A stretch of 64,000 bases of DNA from Escherichia phage dw-ec, in the sequence record OL739525.1, one strand, 5' to 3'. The notes under the pieces are model-generated. The model was not told the origin of the DNA and searched no databases. It was given only the letters and a program-made list of their open reading frames with translations. Shown one piece after another: positions 17,795-44,080 of this stretch (positions within the stretch are counted from its first letter, which is position 1; each line of letters opens with the position of its first letter). The translations under genes were made by a program, and so were the position numbers.

Positions 17795-19693
17795 ATGTCA
17801 ACTACAATTACTAATTTACCCGAAACATCAAAAGTTAATGGTTCAGATTACCTGGTTTTAGATCAACCTGATAAAACTGTTAAAAGCACAGTTTCCAACT
17901 TTCTTACTGACACTGGGGTGGTTTTAGCCACCCAGTTGAAAGATACAAATGGAGCAGATTTAATACAATCCTCAAATGGTAATACTGTTCAGGAAGAGTT
18001 GAATAACAATCTTCTTAATGATCGTGAACAGTGGCGTCGTAGTCTTGCCGAGGCTGGGTTAACTCTTGTTGATGGTAGTTTTGAAGAAGGGGCTACAGTG
18101 GGCAGTGTAACTGATGCTGTTTGGCACATTTCTGTTGGACAGTGTTATACATGGCATGGCGCTTTCCCTAAAACTGTTCCTGCTGACTCAACCCCTGAAG
18201 CATCTGGTGGTGTTGGTATTGGTGCATGGGTTAGTGTTGGAGATGCATCTTTGAGAAGCAATCTTGCATCTGATGATGGCGCGGGTCTGGTCGGATTTAA
18301 GTCGCCTCTGGCCAACTCTATTAAGCGAGCACTACATGATAAAAATAATGACCTGGTGTCAGTCAAGGACTTTGGAGTTGTTGGCGACGGTGTGACCGAC
18401 GATACCGCCGCATTTCAGGCAGCAATAGATTCGAAAAAGAGTTTATACATACCGGATGGTATTTATCTTATAAGCTCTACTTTAATCATAACTGCCACTG
18501 ATAGTTTATGTATTGTTGGTAATAGTTTTGGACATGTTAATGACCAAACAACAGGTTCAGTAATTAAGTTTACTGGGTTAGCGTCACCCGCCATTCGGGT
18601 TCAAGGTGGTGCGATAGGAGCTAAGATTTCTGGACTTTTTCTGGATATCCAGGATTCATCATCTGATGGCTTTGATTTCGGTGGGGCTTGGTATTTAAAA
18701 CTTCAAGATTGCGTTGTCAGAAACGCTCGATATGGGGTCTATTTACATTACGATAGCCCAGACTATTTTTCCGGAGTAGCTGAGCTAACTTCGTGCTATT
18801 TCGCTAAATGCGCAAATGGCGTAAAAACGTCAAAAGTAGATATCAACGTAGTTAAAGTTGATAATTGCACCTTCTTTGACGGAGTTAACGGTGTTCTTAT
18901 TGGTGACTCAGGTGCTGCAAGTAGTGTGCGAAATTTCATAGTCAGAGACTCTCTATTCGAAGCGAACACAGGTTATGACGTAGGCGTCGTCGCTGGGGGT
19001 GCGCAGCAGTTACTGGTAGATGGTAACTATTTCGAAGAGAATACCGCTTCCTCTTTAGCGAGGGTATATGTTGCAGATGATGTTCGCTCTCCGCGTTCTT
19101 CCTCGGTTTCAATAACTAACAACACGTTTAGTAAAGATACGACAGGCGACCTTGTTTTCTTGTCCGGTGTTTCCGGCGTTCTTGTTAAACAAAACTGGTC
19201 TGCGTTCGGAGGTATAGGTTTTGTACGGGCGATTAATATTGACAATTATGAGATAGATAGATGCTCCACAGTATCAGGTGCGGCTCCATGTAATGTTGTC
19301 ATAGACAACATCTTACAAGTACCGGACACTTCTGTTAATAAGATTTCTATTAACAAGGCCCAAGAATACTCGTTTATTGGGACTACTGTCGTAAAAAGGT
19401 CTAGTGCATGTACACGGGCTATGATTCAATTTAATGGAATTTCTGGGTCGTTAGTGTATGCAGACGGAGCAACTGTATCTAAAACCGGGACCGGTAAATA
19501 TACCATCAACCTATCTAATGCTTTACCCTCTTCCGCATACGCTGTTTCGTGTAGTGTCGGCAATACTACAGGCGGAGAGAAATTAGCAATTAATGTTGTA
19601 AGTACATCCGCTGGTTCTTTTAACCTTGAAGTTTTCGACCTTTCAGGGGCGTATCAGGATTCTGGATACATATCTGCCGCAGTTATTATGTAA
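17795..19693 (+). CDS. tailspike with pectate-lyase-type beta-helix
   Basis: 632 aa. Motif VKDFGVVGDGVTDDTAAFQAAIDS is typical of right-handed beta-helix depolymerases. N-terminus is of the attachment type. Confidence 0.6.
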   Translation: MSTTITNLPETSKVNGSDYLVLDQPDKTVKSTVSNFLTDTGVVLATQLKDTNGADLIQSSNGNTVQEELNNNLLNDREQWRRSLAEAGLTLVDGSFEEGATVGSVTDAVWHISVGQCYTWHGAFPKTVPADSTPEASGGVGIGAWVSVGDASLRSNLASDDGAGLVGFKSPLANSIKRALHDKNNDLVSVKDFGVVGDGVTDDTAAFQAAIDSKKSLYIPDGIYLISSTLIITATDSLCIVGNSFGHVNDQTTGSVIKFTGLASPAIRVQGGAIGAKISGLFLDIQDSSSDGFDFGGAWYLKLQDCVVRNARYGVYLHYDSPDYFSGVAELTSCYFAKCANGVKTSKVDINVVKVDNCTFFDGVNGVLIGDSGAASSVRNFIVRDSLFEANTGYDVGVVAGGAQQLLVDGNYFEENTASSLARVYVADDVRSPRSSSVSITNNTFSKDTTGDLVFLSGVSGVLVKQNWSAFGGIGFVRAINIDNYEIDRCSTVSGAAPCNVVIDNILQVPDTSVNKISINKAQEYSFIGTTVVKRSSACTRAMIQFNGISGSLVYADGATVSKTGTGKYTINLSNALPSSAYAVSCSVGNTTGGEKLAINVVSTSAGSFNLEVFDLSGAYQDSGYISAAVIM

Positions 19694-19728
19694 ATAATGC
19701 TCACTCCAGATATCCATCATGTAAAAAA

Positions 19729-19747
19729 CCCCTCTTCGGAGGGGTTT
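19729..19747 (+). terminator. hairpin terminator after tailspike gene
   Basis: CCCCTC-TTCG-GAGGGG with UUCG tetraloop, then TTTCC (weak U-run). Confidence 0.5.
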
Positions 19748-19770
19748 CCTAGAAAAACAATGAGGTTTAT

Positions 19771-20079
19771 ATGAACGAAATGTTCTCACAAGGTGGTAAG
19801 GGTTCAACTGGAATCTTAACCAACAAACAAGCAGTAGCCCGTCACTTTGGGGTTAAGCAATCTGAGGTTGTTTACTTCTCAGTTGGTGTGGATTTGGGTG
19901 GGTATAAGGTTATCTATGATAAGGAGACGCAAAGGGCGTATTCCCTACCTGCTGATATTGCCCCAGGTACTACTGCCATTAGTCTTAGTGCTGCTGTACT
20001 TGTGCATTCAGCGGGTTCTGTAGACCTTGGGGAATTAGCTGTATCTCGTGATTTAAAAAGTAATGAGAATGCACTATGA
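19771..20079 (+). CDS. hypothetical protein sharing a segment with tailspike 24403-27456
   Basis: 102 aa. Segment YSLPADIAPGTTAISLSAAVLVHSAGSVDLGELAVSRD aligns with YTLPPNITGTLTSLSVSGVMTYSGGSVDLSALAVERG in the 1017-aa tailspike. Confidence 0.4.
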   Translation: MNEMFSQGGKGSTGILTNKQAVARHFGVKQSEVVYFSVGVDLGGYKVIYDKETQRAYSLPADIAPGTTAISLSAAVLVHSAGSVDLGELAVSRDLKSNENAL

Positions 20080-27517: not shown

Positions 27518-29542
27518 ATGAATTTAACAAGACCTAATAGTGCGATAGCCGATCTGGTAGAAGCTACTTATCGAAAACGTCGCAGCTTTGAGGCAGGTTT
27601 TACATTACGTAATTCCCGTGAAGTTTTGCTGTTAGCAGCAGAAGGGAATTATTACCAATGGAAAGGAACTTTTCCTAAAGTTGTTCCAGCAAACTCTACG
27701 CCAGCCACCACAGGTGGTATTTCTTCCCTTGCATGGCAAAGTGTTGGGACCGCTGATGATATAGCAATTATCAATGCCAAGTTTACGGCAATGCAGCAAC
27801 AGATTGATGATCTGTCGGAAACAATACCTGAAGCTGGTAAATCGGCTTATCAGATCGCACTTGATAATGGTTTTGTTGGAACAGAAGCACAATGGCTTGC
27901 TTCTTTGAAAGGGGATACTGGTGCTCAACTTAATATTAAAGGATCATTAGCAAACACTAGTGAACTACCATCCACAGGTAACGTTGCAGGGGATGGTTAT
28001 ATCGTAGGTGATGTAATCTACGCTTGGGACGGTTCTGTTTGGAAACTTATTTCTTCTCTTGGGCCAGAAGGTAAATCAGCTTACGAGGTATGGTTGGCAG
28101 ATGGTAATACAGGATCTGTTTATGATTTTCTTACCTCTATAAAAGGTGATAAAGGTGATGTTGGTCCTACAGGGCCACAGGGAGCACCTGGTGTTAACGC
28201 CAACGGTTTTGATTATCGTGGGGATTTGCCTTCTACAAGTAACTTACCACAACCAAACTCTGAAAACGTAAGTCAAGCTTATTCTATCAATGGTAATCTT
28301 TATGTCTCTAATGGGACAGCTTGGGTCAACATGGGTAATATTGTTGGTCCTCAAGGTCCACAAGGTGAGGCAGGTAAAGACGGTCTTGATGGAACAGATG
28401 GAGATGAAGGGAAATCTGCATATCAAAGTTGGCTGGATGCTGGTAATGAAGGGACAGAAGTAGATTTTATTGCCTCACTTAAAGGTCCAAAAGGAGACAA
28501 AGGTGATCAAGGAGAGCGAGGTCCACAAGGTGAACTAGGTCCACAAGGACCAGTGGGTGCAACAGGATCAGGCTTAGATATTATCGGGGTTCTGAACAGT
28601 GAAGCTGAACTTCCTCCTACCGGAGAAGTAGGTGATGCATATAAAATTAATAATGATTTATATGTTTGGGTTCAAGATGCTACGGAATGGATGAATGTTG
28701 GCAGTCTTGGAGGAACATCAATTACAGCTAAAGGTCATGTTCCGAACAGTGAAGCTCTCCCTGTTTATAATAACTATGGCGATGCCTACTTAACTGAAGA
28801 CACTAGTAATCTTTACATCTATACCTACGATCAAGACACCAATTCCGCATCTTTTGTTGACATGGGAAGTATTAAAGGCGACAAAGGTGAAAAAGGGGAT
28901 AAAGGAGATAAGGGTGATCCTGGAACAAACGGAACCAACGGTACTGATGGGACCAACGGTAAGGACGGCGCACAGTGGTTTGTAGCAACAACTAATCCAG
29001 TTGCAGGAGACGGTGTTATCAATGATTACGCCTTCAATACTACCACTGGAGCAGTGTTTAAGAAAACAGATTCTTCTACGTGGACGCTTATAGGCACTCT
29101 TCCTAGTATACCAGAAGCCCCTCAAGACGGCTTGACGTATGGTCGGTCTGATGGAAACTGGATCGAAATATCAGGATCAGATCCTACGGAAGCTATAACA
29201 CCAACTAGAGTTACAGCAGGTTTCATGGAACTTGAAACAACTGCTGCCAACTCTGGAGCATCTTGGACTCCTTCTGGAACTTCCAATATGTATGTTGTTA
29301 CAGTAACTGATGCTCTGACAGTTGGAGCATGGCCTGGTGTCACTGGCTCTACAAAACCTAAAGCGTTTTCAGCAATGATTTATTTGATTCAAGATACAAC
29401 GGGACACACGGTTACACTAGATGCGTCTTATGGAGCACTAAATGATACAGAAATAGCAACTGCTGCTAACGCAGTAACAATTTTGCAATTAACGTATCCT
29501 GGTGTGGGTGATATCGTGGACATGGTTGTTGTAACACGATAA
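27518..29542 (+). CDS. tail fibre with collagen-like and phage-fibre repeats
   Basis: 674 aa. Gly-X-Y runs (GDKGDVGPTGPQGAPG; GPKGDKGDQGERGPQGELGPQGPVGATG; GDKGEKGDKGDKGDPGTNGTNGTDGTNGKDG) and a thrice-repeated GKSAY...W(L)...LKG unit. Confidence 0.75.
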   Translation: MNLTRPNSAIADLVEATYRKRRSFEAGFTLRNSREVLLLAAEGNYYQWKGTFPKVVPANSTPATTGGISSLAWQSVGTADDIAIINAKFTAMQQQIDDLSETIPEAGKSAYQIALDNGFVGTEAQWLASLKGDTGAQLNIKGSLANTSELPSTGNVAGDGYIVGDVIYAWDGSVWKLISSLGPEGKSAYEVWLADGNTGSVYDFLTSIKGDKGDVGPTGPQGAPGVNANGFDYRGDLPSTSNLPQPNSENVSQAYSINGNLYVSNGTAWVNMGNIVGPQGPQGEAGKDGLDGTDGDEGKSAYQSWLDAGNEGTEVDFIASLKGPKGDKGDQGERGPQGELGPQGPVGATGSGLDIIGVLNSEAELPPTGEVGDAYKINNDLYVWVQDATEWMNVGSLGGTSITAKGHVPNSEALPVYNNYGDAYLTEDTSNLYIYTYDQDTNSASFVDMGSIKGDKGEKGDKGDKGDPGTNGTNGTDGTNGKDGAQWFVATTNPVAGDGVINDYAFNTTTGAVFKKTDSSTWTLIGTLPSIPEAPQDGLTYGRSDGNWIEISGSDPTEAITPTRVTAGFMELETTAANSGASWTPSGTSNMYVVTVTDALTVGAWPGVTGSTKPKAFSAMIYLIQDTTGHTVTLDASYGALNDTEIATAANAVTILQLTYPGVGDIVDMVVVTR

Positions 29543-29583: not shown

Positions 29584-32256
29584 ATGTTTCCAATTCCAAT
29601 ATTTACTATTATGACCAGCACTGGTGTCGTTCCTCTGCCAGCGGGTATTGTTAAAAAAGTAATCACTTTAGATTACCCAGATAATGCTGGTAATTCTAAC
29701 AGCAGTTTAGCAATTTTGCTTAATGATGGTAGATTGTTTACTCAAGGCGCAAACCTTTTTGGTGAGATTGCAGATGGAACTCGTAGTGCACGATTCAATA
29801 ATTTCCACTTAGCTTCTACTGTAGTAGCGGATGTGTTTACCGCAGATCGTTGTTTTGTTATTAAAACTAACAGCGGGGGATGGCAATATTCAGGATTGAC
29901 AGCAGGGTTGGTAGGATCTATAGCAGCAGGTGGTACGGATGCATGTGTAACTACTTGGACCAGCTTTCCATCTGTAATAACAGGGACTATCTCTTTAGCC
30001 AATCTTAAAGAGGTTAAAGGAGGGTATAACAATACTCTTTGGTTAATGAATAGCGGTGTTCTTTATGGATCGGGTCAAAACACAGTAGGCAGTTTAGGTG
30101 CAAGCACTACTAACGAAGTTTCTACTCCCCGTCAGATAACAAGTTCAGCAGTTGCTTTTGATGCAGGTTATAACCAATGCTCTTATGTCAACAATGCGGG
30201 AACCTTGCGTGTTTGTGGAGCTAGTAAAGGTTTAGCAGGTAATAATAACACAACAACCGCTTTTGTCAATGCCACGATATCCACTACTGAAACAGTGTAT
30301 GTCAAAGATTACATCAATACAGTTTCCCAGACAATAGTTGTAGGAGATACCTCCGGTGGCGCGGGTACAGTAAACTACTTATATGTTAGATCTAATACAG
30401 AAACAACCTACACTAAACTGGACACCTTTGCAGCAGGTTTCTCAACATGGAAATTTCCACCAAGCCGCCACTCTTTTTTCGTTGGGATCAATAATTCCTT
30501 GTGGGCTATTGGTAAGAACTACACTGCAAACTTAGGTTTGGGATATGATTCTGCGAGCGGAGATCCACTCCAAGTGGGAAAACCAGTTAAACCTGAAGGA
30601 GTGGGTTCCTGGGATATAAACAAGCTCACAAGCGTTCATACGTTGAATATGGATATTACTAACCAATTAGGTTATCAAGGAACCTTTTTCGTTTATAACG
30701 GGGATATGTATTATTCCGGTATTTGGAAAGATGGGAAAGCCTCGTATCTGTTCAATAGTGGTCTAAACTATAATAAATTCACACCAATAGCAAGCTCCGT
30801 GATTACGGGGGATGTTCTGGCAACTGGCTTAACTACAGATTCTTTAGGAATTTGTATTGTAGGTGGAACTAAACAGTTGACACATTCTGTTAGCCCAGAA
30901 GGAGGTAAACTTTTCAATATTAAATACACTTCTTCTGCCCCTGCAAACATGACAATATCATCTACTGGTTTAATGACTTTCCATGCAGAAGGTGGTTTTG
31001 ATGCAGGTATGACAGCCTTAAACGCTGAAGGAACAACTTTATCAGATACCTCTGGAGGATATGCTTCAACATTGAGTGTTTACACCCCTAGCTTATCTGC
31101 GATGGATGTAGGAACAACACAAACAATGGTAGCAGAAATAACGCCAACAGGAGCAGCAAGCTTACCTGGTATGGTTGTTGAGTATACAACTACAGATCCT
31201 AATGTTGCTACAGTAGATCCTACAACTGGTGTAATAACTGGTGTTGGTGATGGTGGTTGTAGAATTGGTTGCACAGCTACATATCAAGGTGTTGTTACCG
31301 CTTCTGATAGTTCTTATTTAACGGTGAACGCTGTTGCGGGAAAGGAGTTAGCTCCATCTCCGAGTAGTAGTTTAACGGTTCTAAACGGATATTTCAACCA
31401 CTCGGCAGATGGGGCAATTACGTTCCCAATTTTATCGGGTACTGTCACACCAGCTAACTTTGTAGTTAAGGTGGATGACGTTGTAATACCTTCAAATAAA
31501 GTAATATTTAGAAATAAAGCTTTCTCTACAGTGGATAGTTATCCAGCAGGAGAATATAGACTGGCTATTGAATTTGCAAGTGCTTCAGTAGTGAATAGTG
31601 TTGATGTGTCTATGGAAGCAAATCCAGATCTTTTAGAATTATGGGGCGGCAACAGAATTGGTTATTCTACAAGCCCAGCCTCACAATTCTTAAAAGGTTG
31701 TGCTAACTTAAGACGAATAACTTCTGATTGTTTTAGTAACACATCTTACACCGGAACATCTATAAGTGGTATCTTCTCTGGCTGTACAAGTTTGACAGCT
31801 ATCCCTGAAGGATTATTCAGTGATGCTTTATTTCCTTCAATGACAACAATGTCAAGCACGTTTGAAGGTTGTACATCTTTAACATCTATTCCTTCAGATT
31901 TATTTAAAAATCTATCAAAAGTTACAAGATATTCTTACACCTTTAAAGATTGCACCTCTCTTGCAGAAGTTCCAGCAGGAATGTTTGATAATATTCCAAC
32001 GAAAGTGACCTCTTTAACAGCTACATTCCAAGGTTGTTTAGCACTTACAGATTTTAATAAAATCTTTAATGACAACCCAGGGTTAACTGTTTGTGGTAAA
32101 CGTGGAGCATTATCTTCTTTCTTTAGTGGATGCACAAATCTTACAGGAACAGGAACAACATTAACAAATACATTAGGCGGAGTAGCTAATAGTTACCTAT
32201 TCAGGTATTGCACAAAACTTTCTGATTATAACAATATTCCTTCGGGTTATAAATAA
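29584..32256 (+). CDS. tail fibre/adhesin with Ig-like and BspA-type leucine-rich-repeat C-terminus
   Basis: 890 aa. Big_2-like segment (PNVATVDPTTGVITGVGDGGCRIGCTATYQGVVTAS). C-terminal repeats of the form F.GCTSLT.IP..LF (FSGCTSLTAIPEGLF, FEGCTSLTSIPSDLF, FKDCTSLAEVPAGMF, FQGCLALTDF, FSGCTNLTG). Confidence 0.55.
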   Translation: MFPIPIFTIMTSTGVVPLPAGIVKKVITLDYPDNAGNSNSSLAILLNDGRLFTQGANLFGEIADGTRSARFNNFHLASTVVADVFTADRCFVIKTNSGGWQYSGLTAGLVGSIAAGGTDACVTTWTSFPSVITGTISLANLKEVKGGYNNTLWLMNSGVLYGSGQNTVGSLGASTTNEVSTPRQITSSAVAFDAGYNQCSYVNNAGTLRVCGASKGLAGNNNTTTAFVNATISTTETVYVKDYINTVSQTIVVGDTSGGAGTVNYLYVRSNTETTYTKLDTFAAGFSTWKFPPSRHSFFVGINNSLWAIGKNYTANLGLGYDSASGDPLQVGKPVKPEGVGSWDINKLTSVHTLNMDITNQLGYQGTFFVYNGDMYYSGIWKDGKASYLFNSGLNYNKFTPIASSVITGDVLATGLTTDSLGICIVGGTKQLTHSVSPEGGKLFNIKYTSSAPANMTISSTGLMTFHAEGGFDAGMTALNAEGTTLSDTSGGYASTLSVYTPSLSAMDVGTTQTMVAEITPTGAASLPGMVVEYTTTDPNVATVDPTTGVITGVGDGGCRIGCTATYQGVVTASDSSYLTVNAVAGKELAPSPSSSLTVLNGYFNHSADGAITFPILSGTVTPANFVVKVDDVVIPSNKVIFRNKAFSTVDSYPAGEYRLAIEFASASVVNSVDVSMEANPDLLELWGGNRIGYSTSPASQFLKGCANLRRITSDCFSNTSYTGTSISGIFSGCTSLTAIPEGLFSDALFPSMTTMSSTFEGCTSLTSIPSDLFKNLSKVTRYSYTFKDCTSLAEVPAGMFDNIPTKVTSLTATFQGCLALTDFNKIFNDNPGLTVCGKRGALSSFFSGCTNLTGTGTTLTNTLGGVANSYLFRYCTKLSDYNNIPSGYK

Positions 32257-32257
32257 G

Positions 32258-32287
32258 AAAAGGAGCCATTTGGCTCCTTTCTTTTAT
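32258..32287. terminator. bidirectional hairpin terminator at the convergence point
   Basis: AAAGGAGCC-ATTT-GGCTCCTTT with A-run upstream and T-run downstream, so it reads as hairpin plus U-tract on both strands. Confidence 0.6.
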
Positions 32288-32322
32288 AAAGTTAACTCTT
32301 CCCATGTTCTTGTGCCGCTTCT

Positions 32323-32345
32323 GGGGGGCCCCCCCCCCCCCCCCC
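32323..32345. repeat. homopolymer tract G6C17
   Basis: GGGGGGCCCCCCCCCCCCCCCCC read directly, in the 3' region of ssb between the convergent gene blocks. Confidence 0.9.
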
Positions 32346-32360
32346 TATAGATCAATAAGA

Positions 32361-33248
32361 TCAGAATGGAATATCATCATCGAAGTCCATTGGAGGTTCT
32401 TCTTGATTACTTGGAGTTGGTTCTGGTTGTGGTTCAGGTTTTTTAACTTCTTTCTTCTCTTCTTTCTTAGGTTGTTCTGCGGAACCACGAATGGCAGCAG
32501 CAACTTTATCAGACAAAGCTAGAACTTTACGAGCAGAGTCAATCAAATCTTCTACAGATACAGTCTTAATGGTATGGTCTTTACAAGCATTGAGGATAGC
32601 GTGACCAACAGATGCCCCAAGATCATAATCATTAATGTCAACGCCACGAGATTCAGCAATTTCCGATTTCAGCGTGACAGTTGCAGATTGAACAACCCCA
32701 GCGATATCGAAAGCATCACCTTTAACACCATTACGAATCAGTTCCAGTGCACCATTTACTGCGTGACCAGTTTCCAGACCTACAGTATCACGTTTTTTAT
32801 AGGACTGCTTAGGAGCAGCATCGTTGGAACCTTTATTGCCAGAAGATTTGTTAGACTTCTGAACACCATCGGTAGACAATACTGTAATACGAGATTTTTT
32901 AGTATTGTAGTAAGTTTTACCGCCTTTATTATCAACGCGATCAATATCAATACTTACTTCTACACCTTTTTCAATAGTGATCCAATTATCACCTTCTTTG
33001 ACTTGCAGGTTTTCATAACCTTCTTTCAGTTCAATGTCACCAAGAGAAATCCAAACACCTTTCTCATCTGGTTTAGCACCTTTCTCTTTCAGAACAAGAG
33101 AAGCTCGGTGAGTTGAAACAATCGTTTTTCCTTCCCAATGAAAAGTTTTAGGTTCAGCGAATTTATCCAGTTTAACGTAGTCTACGATACCAGTTGCATA
33201 AGTTACGGTTTTGCCTTTACGATCAGTTTCAGTATTAATTACGGACAT
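32361..33248 (-). CDS. ssb: single-stranded DNA-binding protein
   Basis: 295 aa ending in the SSB-type acidic tail ...PPMDFDDDIPF, preceded by a Pro/Glu/Lys-rich linker. Confidence 0.8.
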   Translation of the reverse strand: MSVINTETDRKGKTVTYATGIVDYVKLDKFAEPKTFHWEGKTIVSTHRASLVLKEKGAKPDEKGVWISLGDIELKEGYENLQVKEGDNWITIEKGVEVSIDIDRVDNKGGKTYYNTKKSRITVLSTDGVQKSNKSSGNKGSNDAAPKQSYKKRDTVGLETGHAVNGALELIRNGVKGDAFDIAGVVQSATVTLKSEIAESRGVDINDYDLGASVGHAILNACKDHTIKTVSVEDLIDSARKVLALSDKVAAAIRGSAEQPKKEEKKEVKKPEPQPEPTPSNQEEPPMDFDDDIPF

Positions 33249-33702: not shown

Positions 33703-34296
33703 TTACCAAGGAATATCCTCTTCTTCCAATCTGGTATCTACTTGAGGTGGACGTGGAACCTTAACCTCTTTCACAAAACGAAGATATGGGAAACGTGTAG
33801 CAATTTTAATAACGTGTTTGGCATCTTCTCTAACGTCTTTGTGCAAGAAGCAGATCCCTGTTTCCAAGGTTGTTTCAAAATCTTTAGAATAATAACAATC
33901 CTTCCCATCAAATGCAGCCTGGCAGATGGACAGATCGAACTCATTTAGAAAGGTTGTCATTACGCTTGGTTCCATAATCATAAGGTTGCAAAGCTGACCA
34001 TCACGTTCAAACTCAAAAACGTGTTTAAGACCAGTAACACCTTCATAATTGTCAGAAGCCTCTTTGTTTCCTAGTTTACGAATATTGGTTCCCATTAAAG
34101 CAGATGCAATTAATCCTTGTATTTGTTCTTCAGTCCGATGTGCAGGAAGGGATGTATAGAAATCAAGATCACGTCCAGCAATATCAAGAATACGCCAATC
34201 ACGAACAGCACCGCCAGCCAAGACAGAATTAGGATCAGCGATCTTTAATACGGTAAGAATTTCTTTGGCAATATTGATTTGTTTTGATTTAGTCAT
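33703..34296 (-). CDS. nucleotidyltransferase-fold protein (CCA-adding-enzyme head-like)
   Basis: 197 aa. Motif VLAGGAVRDWRILDIAGRDLDF matches the pol-beta-type GGxVRD...DxD signature of class II tRNA nucleotidyltransferases. C-terminus ends EEEDIPW. Confidence 0.45.
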   Translation of the reverse strand: MTKSKQINIAKEILTVLKIADPNSVLAGGAVRDWRILDIAGRDLDFYTSLPAHRTEEQIQGLIASALMGTNIRKLGNKEASDNYEGVTGLKHVFEFERDGQLCNLMIMEPSVMTTFLNEFDLSICQAAFDGKDCYYSKDFETTLETGICFLHKDVREDAKHVIKIATRFPYLRFVKEVKVPRPPQVDTRLEEEDIPW

Positions 34297-44064: not shown

Positions 44065-44080
44065 TCTCCCCTCCGTTATA

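Follow-up and report, generated by a model that had tools for sequence, protein, structure and literature searches.

Introduction

The seg and mob genes of phage T4 encode free-standing homing endonucleases, which are located in intergenic spacers of phage genomes and pass through a cycle of gain, degeneration and loss. Hypermutable homopolymers are known from the contingency loci of bacteria, and poly-G tracts have been described in genes of Campylobacter phages. These tracts lie in open reading frames (ORFs) or promoters, they recur across strains and they switch expression. In addition, poly-G tails of reads are a documented artefact of two-colour Illumina sequencing (PMC6129281).

In the present study, we analysed a stretch of phage DNA of 64,000 bases (the window), in which an uninterrupted run of six G is followed by seventeen C (G6C17). 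The tract resembles the contingency loci and the Campylobacter phage tracts in being a long uninterrupted G/C run that should slip in replication. Unlike them, it is located between the stop codon of a putative ssb gene and a terminator, it is present in a single genome and it affects no ORF. The spacer in which it lies resembles the seg/mob type of cycle, as it is empty, occupied by an ORF or relic-bearing among the members of the genus, and 34 nt from the 3' end of this ORF are left in the window; it differs in that the window has neither the endonuclease ORF nor a paralog. The relics already known from this site (DE16 type) are also different, having no homopolymer filler. In comparison with poly-G and contig-end artefacts, the tract shows the same pure G followed by pure C, with poly-G towards the junction on both strands, and the same absence from independent assemblies of near-identical genomes. 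It differs from these artefacts in being internal in an otherwise clean sequence, and a join of former contig ends must be assumed for it. Searches of the literature on homopolymers of Phapecoctavirus, the genus to which the window belongs, or on its relative ETEC-TG found nothing useful.

Results

Identity and quality of the window

The window was assigned to Phapecoctavirus (Stephanstirmvirinae), that is, to a phAPEC8-like E. coli myovirus of ~150 kb. Identity to phage ETEC-TG is 99.5% over 25 kb, and the 47.6 kb aligned with this phage contain 241 substitutions and only 2 gap positions; the sequence of the window is therefore clean. Across the 25 kb, the net length excess over ETEC-TG is exactly 48 nt, and the 48-nt insert described below is the sole sizeable indel inside the aligned blocks. 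The sole difference in homopolymer length from ETEC-TG in the 47.6 kb (C4 vs C5) was found at position 44068, which appears from its context to be within a ribosome-binding-site region (GGAGGGG...ATG, minus strand).

In the structural block, ~2.1 kb at 17956-20075 gave no megablast alignment with ETEC-TG and is flanked by sequence of 99.5% identity; this segment is probably a swapped tail-fibre or receptor-binding module. A tail fibre of 674 aa with collagen-like G-X-Y repeats is encoded at 27518-29542 (plus strand). According to the gene-position index, the exact 674-aa fibre is shared only with ETEC-TG, which carries the short spacer allele. For the 890-aa tail protein of the window, no record was found. 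Furthermore, the records of Campylobacter phage B15, Pseudomonas phage PsgM04F and Acinetobacter phage vB_AbaM_ABPW7 match the genus at ~85%-99% identity, and the host labels of these three records look doubtful.

Position and context of the G6C17 tract

The uninterrupted tract reported in the initial annotation was confirmed, with G6 at 32323-32328 and C17 at 32329-32345 (plus strand); the latter is G17 on the coding strand of the putative ssb. On the plus strand, the order is ...GTGCCGCTTCT, GGGGGG, CCCCCCCCCCCCCCCCC, TATAGATC..., and the tract region is bounded by ...GCTTCTGG on the left and by TATAGATC... on the right. No other homopolymer of 7 or more bases is present in the 64,000 bases of the window, the longest other G run and the longest other C run being of 6 bases (one each). 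From the base composition (C 0.204, G 0.190), ~1.5e-7 runs of C or G of at least 17 are expected per 64 kb, so the tract is not due to chance. As an uninterrupted mononucleotide run, C17 is above the length criterion of ~8 for hypermutable tracts.

The setting also agreed with what had been annotated, namely the junction of two convergent gene blocks in the 3' UTR of ssb, ~35 nt from a terminator. The last gene of the rightward structural block encodes the tail protein of 890 aa (29584-32256, plus strand). The putative ssb (295 aa, with the acidic tip DFDDDIPF) is located at 32361-33248 on the minus strand, and its stop codon (32361-32363) is 15 nt to the right of the tract. The sign of the GC skew flips at ~32 kb. 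A bidirectional intrinsic terminator hairpin of 9-10 bp (32258-32281) is common to both convergent genes and is kept in the relatives with the same tail gene; the tract starts 42 nt from its stem and 36 nt from the end of its T-run. In the ORF list and in the promoter and terminator scan of the window, no ORF or promoter overlapping the tract was found.

The label ssb is putative and is taken only from the annotation of relatives and from the C-terminal acidic tip. The match to SSB families and to E. coli SSB structures is limited to the C-terminal 26-49 residues (...DFDDDIPF), the best PHROG for the body of the protein is phrog_4477 (function unknown), and the product gave no Pfam match. Two genes from the tract, at 33703-34296 (minus strand) and starting ~1.36 kb from it, a product of 197 aa is encoded which is annotated in relatives as nucleotidyltransferase or tRNA nucleotidyltransferase-like; it had no Pfam match at E <= 0.01.

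Alleles of the spacer in the genus

The equivalent gap was compared in related phages. The tract is missing from all 71 GenBank records, 35 of which cover the locus, and from all 10 other public contigs. The conserved spacer of the relatives reads ...TTTTATAAAAACTCTT|TATAGATC..., and its short allele, ...CTTTTATAAAAACTCTT|TATA(G/A)ATCAATAAGATCA, is present in 22 of the 35 records. An intact endonuclease ORF of 135-164 aa occupies the spacer in 8 of the 35, a count in which some phages are included twice as GenBank and RefSeq copies; the carriers are Mt1B1_P17, nepoznato, AV125, phiWec188/190 and PsgM04F. An allele in which the endonuclease is deleted and a relic is left (DE16 type) was found in 5 of the 35 records, with an ssb of 310 aa vs 295 aa. 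Two of the endonuclease ORFs (135 and 143 aa) were scanned; they hit the PHROG 'endonuclease' at 4.8e-40 and 3.3e-40 and also gave HNH / endonuclease VII-like matches. The 5' halves of the endonuclease ORFs are apparently of at least two kinds, the Mt1B1_P17 type and the nepoznato/AV125 type.

The short allele is present in the closest and in distant relatives. Although their flanking 2 kb match the window at 100% identity, MRostami-2023b and ETEC-TG both carry the short allele. Ten contigs from ENA, Logan or NCBI with an identical ssb product have short-type spacers of 56 or 63 nt, and one contig of IMG/VR also has a short-type spacer. In ESCO13 and ECO340P1, the tail-protein gene and the terminator hairpin are different and the short spacer is identical from CTTTTATAAAAACTCTT onward; therefore, a boundary of a recombination module lies at the terminator. 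The same intergenic site contains an endonuclease ORF in some relatives and is empty in others. Judged from these sequences, the spacer between the tail gene and ssb is a hot spot at which a free-standing HNH-type endonuclease gene, encoding a putative homing enzyme, is gained and lost.

The private insertion and the endonuclease relic

The corresponding interval spans 1,947-1,954 nt in the records of relatives vs 2,001 nt in the window. The extra bases amount to 48, and this insertion is private to one genome. It is composed of a GTT insertion of 3 nt at 32291-32293 and of a 45-nt block at 32301-32345, which was defined by alignments and direct reading of 25 related loci and consists of CCCATGTTCTTGTGCCGCTTCT and G6C17. 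The insertion point of the block in the conserved short spacer is exactly CTCTT^TATAG, and the right part of this spacer, TATAGATCAATAAGA (32346-32360), resumes directly after the last C. When the 45-nt block is removed, the short allele is restored to the base, GTT excepted.

A relic of the 3' end of the HNH-type (endonuclease VII-like) free-standing endonuclease ORF was recognised at 32291-32324 (minus strand). It is identical to the intact gene of the relatives at 33 of 34 bases, with 5 small deletions totalling 6 nt. Its local alignment score is 42, and the maximum in 5,000 shuffles and ~5,000 random genomic windows was 27. Against the endonuclease CDS of Mt1B1_P17 and nepoznato, identity is 83.6%. 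The relic is in register with the flank and aligns with the last codons of the endonuclease ORF; on inspection of the alignment, three deleted bases add up to one codon and EA(A)QEHG is still readable. Of the bases in the window, ATAAA and CTCTT also occur in the short allele, and GTT and the following 24 nt in the endonuclease gene. In the relic region, five intact alleles differ from each other by substitutions only. This homology was observed directly. The relic is genuine locus-derived DNA and not junk, and it looks longer than the remnant in the short allele. As the first two G of the tract are included in the relic, where they align with TGG of the endonuclease gene, the tract adjoins the edge of what is taken here as a homing-endonuclease relic.

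Several other sources of the inserted bases were considered and rejected. No endonuclease ORF or paralog was found elsewhere in the 64-kb window, and an in-window paralog was dismissed as the source of the relic. G6 and the first C might be obtained from GGTGCAGAGGACACAGCC by loss of all A and T; the number of G fits, C17 cannot be derived in this way, and we regard the fit as a coincidence. The 22 nt left of the tract have partial likenesses to the Illumina P7 end, BGI read-2, the ONT rapid adapter and Ion P1 (compared by eye with what we take to be their sequences), which are weaker than the match to the endonuclease gene, and an adapter origin was discarded.

No second carrier of the relic or of the tract was found in the collections searched. 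Exact 20-28-mers of the insert are not in IMG/VR, and their matches in JGI metagenomes are two unrelated AT-rich contigs only. The 28-mer of the insert is missing from the genomes of GTDB, and megablast of the insert region against complete E. coli genomes gave nothing. Both the uniqueness of the insertion and its anatomy are direct observations.

G/C tracts in other assemblies

IMG/VR was scanned for G6C12, counting G/C tracts in which each run was at least 6 and the longer run at least 12. At least 120 contigs unrelated to the window were obtained, with 124 such tracts among the matches listed. Among these, 70 of the 124 are located within 50 nt of the locus end, which marks the contig end in this set, and 89 (72%) within 150 nt; this base rate of the artefact class was observed directly. 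The sequence outside the contig-end tracts is, among the matches listed, low-complexity and homopolymer-rich junk. Internal cases also exist among the matches listed, mostly with long open frames that enter the tract from both sides, a statistic which is inflated by high G+C; such frames are as expected of chimeric joins. The left flank ACAACAGCAATCGGA followed by G15 is identical in two different contigs of this set, L059 and L122. A foldback (inverted-duplication) chimera was rejected for the window, where only G6C6 is palindromic and the flanks are not reverse complements; among the matches listed, the flanks are not reverse complements in most IMG/VR cases either.

Discussion

The tract is, in our opinion, an artefact of sequencing or assembly, or else a neutral scar private to this genome, and not a conserved element or a genome end. 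Between the two options of the initial annotation, a hypervariable element or a library or assembly artefact, both are still live, and a conserved element found no support. The site had also been proposed as a plausible physical genome end. The location between two convergent transcription blocks would suit a terminus, or homopolymer tailing of such an end, and the G-then-C order is that which dG-tailing of two 3' ends at a break might be inferred to give. However, the ends of the Schickermooser record are identical direct terminal repeats of 329 bp, reported as 328 bp (Korf et al., PMC6563267). The ssb of Schickermooser is at 95.1 kb, which places the locus ~95 kb from the terminal repeat, and the 329-bp repeat has no match anywhere in the 64-kb window. 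Furthermore, the sequence across the site of the tract is contiguous in all relatives. With the terminal repeat of the genus elsewhere and not in the window, the site is observed not to be a terminus, and this proposal, the least probable of those considered here, was abandoned. A selected element is also highly improbable, whether as a G-quadruplex or i-motif, an extra terminator, a hairpin stabilising the ssb mRNA or a phase-variation switch. A three-tetrad quadruplex could in principle be formed by G17 on the ssb strand, and a 6-bp G:C hairpin is predicted. The G-quadruplex or i-motif potential claimed earlier for the tract holds in the trivial sense that it comes with any G17/C17, but nothing points to a selected role, structural or regulatory, the tract being present in no relative. 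The region folds no better than shuffles (z = -1.1 and -1.6), no T-run follows the G:C hairpin, the scan calls only the terminator at 32258-32281, and no ORF or promoter is affected. With folds equal to shuffles, only the known hairpin in the scan and no match of the tract region in Rfam, an extra terminator or structured RNA was rejected.

We give a probability of about one half to a technical origin of the G6C17 homopolymer, the most likely reading, under which it would not be a faithful copy of the virion sequence. The assembly may have broken in the polymorphic spacer and retained poly-G tails, and these would have been internalised by end joining or by re-orientation of the genome to a conventional start; both the break and the join are steps that we infer. 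Each strand ends in poly-G when it is read towards the G/C junction, as do the no-signal tails of two-colour Illumina reads, and G or C runs longer than 6 are found neither in 131 kb of DNA of the relatives nor in the rest of the window. We know of no in vivo mechanism for such a G/C block in coliphages. The window is offset by ~63-66 kb from the conventionally oriented records, which fits a re-oriented record whose former contig ends would be internal. Against an artefact, the left flank of the tract is complex and homologous to the locus, in contrast to the junk outside the contig-end tracts of IMG/VR. A de Bruijn assembler cannot link poly-G tails to poly-C unless some reads contain the transition, and an artefact therefore requires chimeric molecules or a join made after assembly. 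A reference-guided consensus, with an endonuclease-bearing phage mapped on a short-allele reference, was also considered, since both the mosaic and the deletions would follow from it; it was rejected, as the right flank is purely of the short-allele type. The return to the short allele on removal of the 45-nt block is more easily understood as one biological indel than as a random contig break. The corresponding alternative, to which we would give somewhat under even odds, is that the bases are genuine phage DNA, namely a neutral, strain-private scar beside a homing-endonuclease gene that has decayed or was copied abortively. The G and C bases of the filler would have come from slippage or from non-templated synthesis in break repair, and the tract would now persist in the ssb 3' UTR as a neutral run that is prone to slippage and has no selected function. 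In its favour, the block has the exact boundaries of a single indel (CTCTT^...^TATAG), the relic next to it truly derives from the locus and looks intermediate between the endonuclease-bearing and short alleles, natural relics of the endonuclease gene exist at the same site (DE16 type), and the assembly is otherwise clean. On the other hand, the relic and the tract are in no other genome or contig, and a non-mobile relic would need to have entered a short-allele background with 100% identical flanks. Since the short allele is present in close and distant relatives, the relic would need to have been re-acquired by a conversion tract of <60 nt. In addition, no other run of G or C is longer than 6, growth from a seed of 4-6 nt to 17 is mechanistically unlikely, and 5 deletions vs 1 substitution are an odd spectrum of decay, because the five intact alleles vary there by substitutions only. 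The more specific proposal, in which a G/C filler was produced in vivo where an endonuclease gene was deleted or homing was aborted and now varies in length in the virion population, seems to us rather unlikely. Its source could be reiterative slippage of the PolA-type polymerase of the phage or a terminal-transferase-like activity, for which the nucleotidyltransferase encoded at 33703-34296 would be a candidate.

Conclusion

At present the finding is of little consequence beyond a warning that, in one deposited Phapecoctavirus sequence, there are probably 20-45 bases in need of a check against the reads. Should the tract prove real, it would be an unusual de novo long G/C run at the scar of an endonuclease gene in a coliphage, and it would be of modest interest for break repair and homopolymer instability in phages. 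For the genus, the finding shows the spacer between the tail gene and ssb to be a hot spot where a putative homing endonuclease is gained and lost.
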